This document shows, piece after piece, positions 29,781 to 29,878 of a stretch of DNA of 64,000 nt (position 1 is its first letter; each line of letters begins with the position of its first letter). The notes under the pieces are model-generated. The model saw nothing but the letters and a program-made list of their open reading frames with translations. It searched no databases and was not told the origin of the DNA. Location: the IMG/VR virus record IMGVR_UViG_3300042888_002988, positions 128,001-192,000 of that record; one strand, 5' to 3'. The position numbers were made by a program, and so were the translations under genes. This DNA is from a virus (lineage: Duplodnaviria; Caudoviricetes).

Positions 29781-29873
29781 GAGCCAGGGCTGGTTGCCTA
29801 TCCGATTATCCGCCGCCGTGGGACGCCACGACGGACATCGGTGGGGTAGGGTTCGAGTCCCTCCCTTGGTTCA
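29781..29873 (+). ncRNA. tRNA-like RNA with acceptor stem and T-arm but no anticodon arm
   Basis: GAGCCAG/TTGGTTC-A acceptor (G3.U70, A73), GGGTTCGAGTCCC T-arm, long central hairpin. Confidence 0.6.
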
Positions 29874-29878
29874 CGATT

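Follow-up and report, generated by a model that had tools for sequence, protein, structure and literature searches.

The RNA gene cluster

This study concerns a 96-nt tRNA-like RNA element at positions 29781 to 29876 of a 64,000-nt stretch of viral DNA (hereafter the window), which comprises bases 128001-192000 of the IMG/VR virus record IMGVR_UViG_3300042888_002988. The record is 200,158 bp long, has a G+C content of 60.6%, is rated complete, and is the genome of an uncultured freshwater jumbo phage of about 200 kb. The element resembles a tRNA in its acceptor stem and T arm and carries a long hairpin arm instead of an anticodon loop. It is encoded on the + strand, as are the RNA genes, the 179-aa ORF and the 40-nt repeats of the window described below.

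The RNA genes of the cluster share this orientation. A phage transfer-messenger RNA (tmRNA) at 29068-29499 (127 bits with the Rfam model; 35-codon tag, ANSNEF...GALAAA) is followed by a tRNA with the anticodon CAU (29508-29583), two rod-like hairpins (between 29589 and 29760), the element, which starts 282 nt downstream of the tmRNA, and a tRNA with a 10-nt anticodon loop (29879-29958), which begins 2 nt past the element. Directly preceding the tmRNA is an open reading frame (ORF) of 179 amino acids (aa) at 28515-29054, with conserved Cys, His and Asp columns and a Lys-rich tail. CCA-ended RNAs of the cluster are tightly packed, and their spacers are U-rich. Roughly seven RNAs lie behind the tmRNA, only one of which is an ordinary tRNA. 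The T-loop motif GGTTCRANTCC matches the 64 kb four times, always on the + strand and inside one 470-nt stretch, that of the RNA cluster. By chance, 0.36 matches were expected, and four were reached in 0 of 100 shuffles.

Two copies of a promoter-like 40-nt direct repeat (family D1, 78% identical, ending in GTCATAATGATTTGCTA) were found at 28335-28374 and 30429-30468, the first upstream of the 179-aa ORF and the second after strong hairpins and before a 115-aa ORF. The repeat is probably a phage promoter or regulatory motif. Since its copies bracket the 179-aa ORF, the tmRNA and the RNA cassettes, these may plausibly form one transcription unit.

Structure of the element

Positions within the element (n) are given as the window coordinate minus 29780. 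The 5' end may be either 29781 or 29783, so that the acceptor 5' strand spans 29781-29789 in a reading with a 9-bp acceptor stem and a 4-bp T stem (9/4) or 29783-29789 in a reading with 7 and 5 bp (7/5). The acceptor 3' strand (29864-29872) completes the pairs G1-C92, A2-U91, G3.U90, C4-G89, C5-G88, A6-U87 and G7.U86, with G8-C85 and G9-C84 as an extension. Between the acceptor and the first internal helix lies an unpaired D-region analogue (29790-29801, n 10-21, CUGGUUGCCUAU) with a conserved GG at 29792-29793 and a conserved UUGCC. It forms no convincing stem, and neither of two alternatives, a 3-bp hairpin (8-10/16-18) and a GGUU/AUCC stem, showed covariation.

The anticodon-stem position is taken by a 5-bp helix (helix a; 29802-29806/29837-29841, n 22-26/57-61). 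No 7-nt anticodon loop follows. Instead, an internal loop (UAUCCG, 29807-29812, opposite AC, 29835-29836) leads to helix b (29813-29834, n 33-41/46-54), a 9-bp hairpin with one CxA mismatch and a GACG cap (29822-29825). A variable-loop-like linker, UGGGGU (29842-29847), connects helix a to the T arm (29848-29862), which has an AGGG/CCCU stem (68-71/79-82) and a UUCGAGU loop; U29847 and C29863 would form a mismatched fifth layer. The 3' tail is ACGA (29873-29876).

The initial annotation, made from the window alone, had described an anticodon-less tRNA-like RNA over this same interval, and every part that it named was found in place: the acceptor, a stem-less D region containing CTGG, a long capped helix and a TTCGAGT T arm. 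It was likewise right that the acceptor and T helices can be drawn as 9/4 (by means of G8-C85, G9-C84 and the 4-bp T stem) and that the 3' end carries no CCA. The acceptor stem and the T arm, whose loop follows the pattern UUCRANY, are those of a tRNA. Nevertheless, the element was called neither by the Rfam tRNA model (RF00005, at least 29 bits) nor by ARAGORN.

Covariation and divergence among alleles

Three alleles of the element are known, all from one phage lineage: that of the window, that of contig L026 and that of X7, found on a Logan contig that belongs to a different lake study. By way of homologues of the 179-aa protein, contigs were located in Logan and ENA. Four of these hold the cluster at 100% identity and thus provide no independent evidence; in L026 the cluster is about 90% identical. 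The L026 element (4495-4589 of the contig) is only 74% identical to that of the window, with 22 substitutions. In the same contig, the 20-nt spacer before the element and the tRNA after it are 100% identical to the window, and rod 2 and the tmRNA are 95% identical. The element therefore diverges about ten times faster than its neighbours, and the divergence is confined to the cassette.

Despite these substitutions, L026 keeps 26 of the 27 proposed pairs (96.3% of pair cells). Five pairs show double compensatory changes: 6-87 (A-U to G-C), 7-86 (G.U to C-G), 25-58 (A-U to G-C), 37-50 (C-G to U-A) and 39-48 (U-A to C-G). In addition, the CxA mismatch at 36-51 becomes C-G, and two pairs turn into wobbles, including 9-84 (G-C to G.U). 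The outermost pairs, 1-92 and 2-91, become G.U and AxC or else require a bulge. Control helices with slid partners gave 40-52% pairing and zero or one double change. When the same number of substitutions was placed at random, the probability of obtaining at least five double changes was 4e-5, and that of breaking at most one pair was 3e-5. Our own covariance model (R1) scored 111 bits on the window allele and 109 bits on that of L026. Three changes, none of them at a paired position, distinguish the X7 allele from the window: C31>A, a T-loop change (G77>A) and a tail change (G95>A).

The internal loop reads UAUCAG in both X7 and L026 (C29811>A), the linker differs between alleles, and the tail is ACAA in X7 and CAA in L026. 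The T stem is invariant, and position 59 of the T loop is G, A or U across the alleles. None of the three encodes CCA. The phage has 11 other tRNA-type genes, and 10 of these encode it. Folded without constraints, the L026 allele adopts the tRNA-like structure as its minimum free energy (MFE) fold.

The retention of 26 pairs, together with the compensatory changes, indicates a structured RNA under selection and not a dead tRNA. We consider it very probable that the element is a real gene for a structured, tRNA-like RNA. A neutral relic of a tRNA with a scrambled anticodon arm would account for the missing anticodon and CCA, the mismatched T-stem layer, the narrow distribution (see below) and the high divergence between alleles. 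However, such a relic would hardly have kept its pairing through 22 substitutions, as the simulation shows, and both alleles share the same unusual architecture, in which the GG and the T loop (save position 59) are invariant. We thus find this explanation improbable. Decay without compensatory changes in relatives, which the initial annotation had named as grounds for dismissing the element, is contradicted by the covariation in L026.

Several other foldings and identities were considered and rejected. The MFE pairing 17-23/64-70 and an extended T stem (64-66/83-85) are both lost in L026. A threading of the tRNA-Sec type, in which the D stem has 6 bp and helix b serves as the variable arm, clashes with the covarying pair 25-58. 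The element also does not read as an intron-containing tRNA: helix b is located at the 37/38 intron site, but there is no U33 and no bulge-helix-bulge, and its 22 nt are far below the size of bacterial group I introns.

tRNA descent and the alanine signature

A 22-mer of the element (AGGGTTCGAGTCCCTCCCTTGG, n 68-89), covering the T stem, the T loop and, with 29864-29869, most of the acceptor 3' strand, was found letter for letter in 55 bacterial loci. There it forms the 3' part of tRNA-Asn(GTT) genes (44 sites), tRNA-Leu genes (14) and a tRNA-Thr gene (1). The bacteria are mostly gut Peptostreptococcaceae, with scattered metagenome-assembled genomes. Because its 3' half is identical to real tRNA genes, the element must be regarded as tRNA-derived.

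Such an identity could also arise if the element were an attP-like segment, copied from the 3' end of a host tRNA gene and used for integration. Yet the matching bacteria do not point to one plausible freshwater host, an att core would need neither the 5' acceptor strand nor the covarying helices, and the element is situated inside an RNA operon of a 200-kb phage, with no integrase seen nearby. We regard this origin as exceedingly improbable.

In the bacterial tRNAs, the 22-mer is read as a 5-bp T stem (GAGGG/CCCTC) followed by a 7-nt acceptor strand (CCTTGGN). Transferred to the element, this register yields a 7/5 branch in which G3-G9 pair with 84-90, the first T-stem layer is a U67xC83 mismatch (UxU in L026), and G1 and A2 fall into the 5' leader. 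The tRNA ancestry thus favours the 7/5 register, starting at 29783. L026 conforms to it, since its pairs 3-9 are all kept and 1-92 and 2-91 are not. Overall, we take the 7/5 register to be the probable one and the 9/4 register a serious second.

The choice of register decides the fate of the alanine identity that the initial annotation had proposed on the basis of G3.U70 and A73. The underlying G.U pair (29783/29870) is kept in all alleles. It is the third pair only if the 5' end is 29781. With this start, in the 9/4 register, the alanine signature is found in two alleles and is ambiguous in the third. In the 7/5 register, the G.U becomes G1.U72 and the discriminator becomes U, or C in L026, so that no alanine signature is left.

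Charging does not necessarily involve the anticodon; the synthetase for tRNA-Leu, for example, ignores it. The element could in principle be charged by an anticodon-independent synthetase of the AlaRS, LeuRS or SerRS type and hand its amino acid to a transferase without ever decoding. The acceptor/T minihelix is intact, and tRNA-Leu is among the closest sequence relatives. On the other hand, there is no CCA, the discriminator is not conserved (U or C, or A, depending on the register), and no transferase gene was recognised among the flanking ORFs, none of which matched Pfam or PHROG. A role as a non-ribosomal carrier is therefore highly improbable.

Relation to tmRNA and other tRNA-like RNAs

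The design of the element is that of the tRNA-like domain (TLD) of tmRNA without any mRNA-like part, as the initial annotation had pointed out: there is no D stem, and a helix, with covariation in both a and b, occupies the anticodon-arm position. Kinship with tmRNA is another matter. The Rfam tmRNA model (RF00023) gave no match at E≤10 in a search of 1.4 kb, nor in a search of 114 nt with the laxest filters. The TLD-only RNA of mycobacteriophage DS6A (JN698994:28478-28560, 83 nt), used as a positive control, scored 43.2 and 34.7 bits with the same model. Given this control, the element does not belong to the tmRNA family as modelled, and a resemblance in design remains. Over 22 nt, its T arm and acceptor 3' strand are of the tRNA-Asn/Leu type, and it has little in common with the TLD of the phage's own tmRNA beyond CUGGUU and the T loop.

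The closest published parallel is that of DS6A, which is listed with a "TLD only" tmRNA-like gene (Hudson, Lau & Williams 2014, PMC4131195). According to a passage in that paper, a molecule similar to this RNA inhibits tmRNA, perhaps by titration of SmpB (PMC4131195, citing Mao et al. 2009). Like the element, the DS6A RNA is phage borne and combines an acceptor helix, a stem-less D region with GG and a T arm with a substitute for the anticodon arm that consists of a 5-bp helix, an internal loop and a hairpin with a cap. The CCA is degenerate in both RNAs, reading CUA in DS6A and CGA or CAA in the element. Unlike the element, the DS6A RNA is a recognisable tmRNA with a GGGG... acceptor, a UCGAC motif and 7/5 stems; the element has a T arm and acceptor of the tRNA-Asn/Leu type, a 4-bp T stem with a mismatch, and a third-position G.U in one register only. 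R1 matched the DS6A RNA at 22.2 bits. Ordinary tRNAs score just as well (12-27.6 bits in 300 kb of tRNA-rich bacterial DNA), so this match reflects a generic tRNA shape and was rejected as a sign of kinship. The GenBank record of DS6A (JN698994, L033) carries no annotation for this RNA, whose 3' end is ACUA and not ACCA; an RtcB-like RNA ligase (gp76) is among the proteins encoded by DS6A.

These comparisons bear on the possibility that the element is a stand-alone TLD of the tmRNA type, alanylated through G3.U70 and A73 after CCA addition or bound by SmpB, that rescues ribosomes without tagging or competes with tmRNA. The shared layout, the complete tmRNA 282 nt upstream, the third-position G.U obtained with a start at 29781, and the precedent of DS6A, whose RNA likewise has a degenerate CUA end and for which such an action has been proposed (PMC4131195), speak for it. 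Arrayed against it are the lack of an Rfam tmRNA match where DS6A is matched, the tRNA-Asn/Leu character of the 3' half, the loss of the signature in the 7/5 register, the degradation of pairs 1-92 and 2-91 in L026, the absence of CCA from every allele, and an R1 match to DS6A no better than that to ordinary tRNAs. Furthermore, if a decoy titrated SmpB, the tmRNA of the phage itself would be crippled as well. On balance, we judge a stand-alone TLD unlikely.

The initial annotation had also suggested a scan with tmRNA, Y RNA and allo-tRNA models, which returned no significant match for any of them, tRNA-Sec included. The acceptor/T branches of tRNA-Sec and allo-tRNAs are of the 9/4, 8/4 or 9/3 kind (Mukai et al. 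2017, PMC5389517). A drawing of the element with a 9-bp acceptor and a 4-bp T stem is possible, and tRNA-Sec was its best match in the Rfam clan, in exactly the 9/4 layout. The score, however, was 13.2 bits (E = 2.8), where the gathering score is 47, the element has no anticodon arm, and with the mismatch layer its 9/4 branch counts 14 layers as opposed to 12-13; the identity with tRNA genes favours 7/5.

Bacterial Y RNAs of the YrlA type are tRNA mimics as well (Chen et al. 2014, PMC4201824; Rfam RF02553). They share with the element a non-decoding body with a T arm and a D-region elbow, and some phages carry them. YrlA is permuted: its termini are found in the long stem, a Ro-binding stem closes its tRNA-like module, and its acceptor is closed, whereas the element ends at its acceptor. 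The best RF02553 match (27.3 bits against a gathering score of 69) bridged the T arm of the element and the D arm of the next tRNA. Mimicry of the Y RNA type, another suggestion of the initial annotation, thus fails on topology and on score, and no gene for the Ro partner (PF05731) is detectable in the 200-kb phage (a host copy is possible). No Rfam family and no paper was found that describes the element RNA.

The tRNA operon of phage T4 contains two stable RNAs that are not tRNAs, species 1 and 2 (rnaC/rnaD), which are presumably excised by the tRNA-processing enzymes and do not decode. We know of no function for them and of no description of them as tRNA bodies with a hairpin for the anticodon loop. 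Going by the general description of rnaC and rnaD, the element is likewise a cassette inside a phage tRNA cluster, co-oriented with its tRNA and tmRNA genes, and its product would be a putative RNA of this kind.

Distribution

Judged by the terminase (77% aa identity), the nearest IMG/VR phages share synteny with the window on both sides and have neither the tmRNA nor the element nor recognisable homologues of the two small ORFs. Lineage L014, whose 179-aa protein is 55% identical, has the tmRNA, a rod and an odd tRNA (6133-6210; its own 10-nt loop, UCCACAUUUC, different stems, no G3.U70) and no counterpart of the element. In lineage L021, the element is also absent; a tmRNA is present, and elsewhere in the spacer (6488-6584, +) lies a different tRNA-like RNA. 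Its branch is 7/5, it has a D arm and, beside the T arm (loop UUCGAGU), a long hairpin, and a 14-nt unpaired stretch stands where an anticodon arm would be expected. It ends in GCCG and has no Rfam match. Homologues of the 179-aa protein precede the tmRNA in five lineages, namely those of the window, L026, L014, L021 and, more distantly, L090; in one lineage (L091-L093), a distant homologue is present without tmRNA. The element is thus accessory, being absent from syntenic relatives and sister lineages.

Exchange is visible even within the lineage of the window. At 4069-4363 of L026, rod 1 and the tRNA-CAU are replaced by a different tRNA-CAU and about 294 nt with a called 87-aa ORF, which marks the cluster as a mosaic of exchangeable cassettes. 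The varied RNA content among relatives likewise identifies the slot between the conserved 210-aa gene and the terminase gene as a variable site for RNA cassettes.

Scans of IMG/VR and JGI metagenomes with exact and degenerate element patterns, with an anchor in the odd tRNA, and with the 179-aa protein alone or aligned yielded no more homologues among the records reached, from which very near ones may be missing. A search with R1 of all loci and five phage records found the element only in the window and L026. Phage sequence is present in DNA runs from lakes (X1-X4 among them). Of four runs whose reads were examined, X10 yielded nothing. Two short contigs that match only 29801-29837, at about 80%, continue into unrelated sequence and were dismissed as chance GC-rich matches.

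A probable non-decoding tRNA mimic

With the anticodon loop replaced by a 9-bp hairpin, the element cannot decode. What it retains of a tRNA are the features whose shape is recognised by proteins and the ribosome, namely the coaxial stack of acceptor and T arm, the T loop and the elbow GG; the D stem is gone. We favour, with somewhat better than even confidence, the reading that it is a genuine, structure-constrained small RNA gene of tRNA descent that serves as a non-decoding tRNA mimic. The compensatory changes extend through helices a and b, which are not needed for processing the neighbouring RNAs, and this suggests that the long arm itself matters.

How such a mimic might work can be outlined tentatively, and we give the mimic or decoy mechanism less than even credence. 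The element would be transcribed from the + strand as one cassette of an RNA operon made up of the promoter-like repeat, the 179-aa ORF, the tmRNA, the tRNA-CAU, the two rods, the element, the 10-nt-loop tRNA and terminator-like hairpins. The tRNA-processing machinery of the host would free the element, with RNase P cutting at its 5' end and at that of the next tRNA; 3' trimming would follow, and CCA would be present only if a host enzyme adds it. The tRNA-like body with its elongated arm could then occupy a factor that recognises the elbow and acceptor of tRNAs. Acting in trans, it would occupy or divert a tRNA-shape-binding factor; candidates are host enzymes that serve in defence or target tRNAs, and members of the rescue pathway. 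The processing, trans action and decoy role proposed here are modelled on the maturation of tRNA operons and on the published mimics YrlA (PMC4201824) and DS6A (PMC4131195). We think it quite unlikely that the element is, more specifically, part of an orthogonal module for ribosome rescue or anti-defence run by the phage, in which it would be a fast-evolving TLD-shaped decoy of preserved structure that sequesters a host factor binding tRNA or tmRNA (SmpB or a tRNA-directed defence nuclease, for instance) while the long-tag tmRNA, possibly with the conserved 179-aa protein, sustains phage translation.

The element might instead work only in cis, as tRNA-shaped punctuation that recruits RNase P or 3' processing for its neighbours and leaves a functionless product. 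The tight polycistronic packing, with the next tRNA 2 nt away, would suit this role, and the acceptor and T arm, which hold the determinants for RNase P, are the best-kept parts. Viral tRNA-like processing signals have precedents in the tRNA-like/miRNA units of herpesviruses and in mascRNA. However, the neighbours are tRNA shaped already and need no helper, and the same tmRNA and odd tRNA are processed in sister lineages that lack the element. Moreover, RNase P recognition does not depend on helices a and b, yet these contain three of the double compensations and the repaired mismatch; covariation there argues against a purely cis-acting part. We consider such a part unlikely.

A number of observations weigh against a non-decoding mimic. 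The covariation rests essentially on one divergent pair of sequences from one phage lineage. The local divergence could stem from recombinational exchange of the cassette and not from an arms race; a roughly tenfold, cassette-limited divergence would be equally compatible with an arms race and with the swapping of modules between diverged homologues. The MFE fold of the window allele taken singly is only marginally better than those of shuffled sequences (z-score of -1.9) and disrupts the T arm. The register can be drawn as 9/4 from 29781, as 7/5 from 29783, or with the 3-bp D hairpin (8-10/16-18), and both the D-region fold and the 3' end are ambiguous. Among the runs found to contain 29690-29965, none was an RNA run; in an initial run search, RNA runs contained only small shares of the query. 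As for a partner protein, no Pfam-detectable gene for SmpB (PF01668), a CCA-adding enzyme, Ro/TROVE (PF05731) or RtcB was found in the 200-kb phage.

In outline, phages were already known to have tRNA mimics and, in their tRNA operons, RNAs that do not decode. Phage tRNA clusters are usually taken as a codon supply, and the element is a tRNA body that is unable to decode. Maintenance of its folded state by compensatory evolution despite a roughly tenfold divergence matches the expectation for an RNA that takes part in a molecular conflict or moves as an exchangeable module. The element thereby adds a concrete case to the thinly documented phage tRNA mimics (the stable RNAs of T4, the TLD-only RNA of DS6A, and YrlA). 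Identification of a partner could show by what means phages interfere with ribosome rescue or with immunity directed at tRNAs; as a mere processing element, the RNA would be a modest curiosity.

The 179-aa protein and other features of the cluster

The 179-aa protein matched neither Pfam nor PHROG. Its AlphaFold2 model (mean predicted local distance difference test score, 66) consists of an N-terminal ferredoxin-like domain followed by a long helix. Foldseek returned nothing at E≤0.001, and VIA-align gave only weak, generic ferredoxin-like matches (Z≤6.6), including domain V of translational GTPases. The idea that the protein is a hidden SmpB was dropped, as no SmpB-like fold was found with Pfam, PHROG, Foldseek or VIA-align.

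The 35-residue tag of the tmRNA (ANSNEFAMTSAEADALLANGIAAPTGVEAGALAAA) is unusually long; ARAGORN chose another, implausible frame. Tags of related tmRNAs (L021, L090) have about 31 residues and are similar in the style of their start and end. Rod-like RNA 1 (29589-29661) ends in GCCA. The tRNA at 29879-29958 is canonical apart from its loop (GCCAACACUU) and has an encoded CCA. Its Logan allele has a compensatory U28-A47 to G-C change and a 9-nt loop, and this tRNA gives the impression of being another selected tRNA-type RNA of non-standard form.

The RNA region closes with inverted repeats and perfect palindromes (30240-30267, 30270-30322 and 30378-30415). The four identical contigs (L029-L032) stop between about 30194 and 30298, and L026 stops at about 30249; the repeats may therefore break assemblies. 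Related copies of the 40-nt repeat are present in the equivalent spacers of relatives L002-L005. Lastly, outside the window, genome C1 carries three RNAs called tRNA-Leu by ARAGORN (28635-28873, - strand; anticodons UAA, CAG and AAG). At 75-77 nt, these are too short to have the long variable arm expected in bacteria, and tRNA-Leu(UAA) of C1 also has no encoded CCA.

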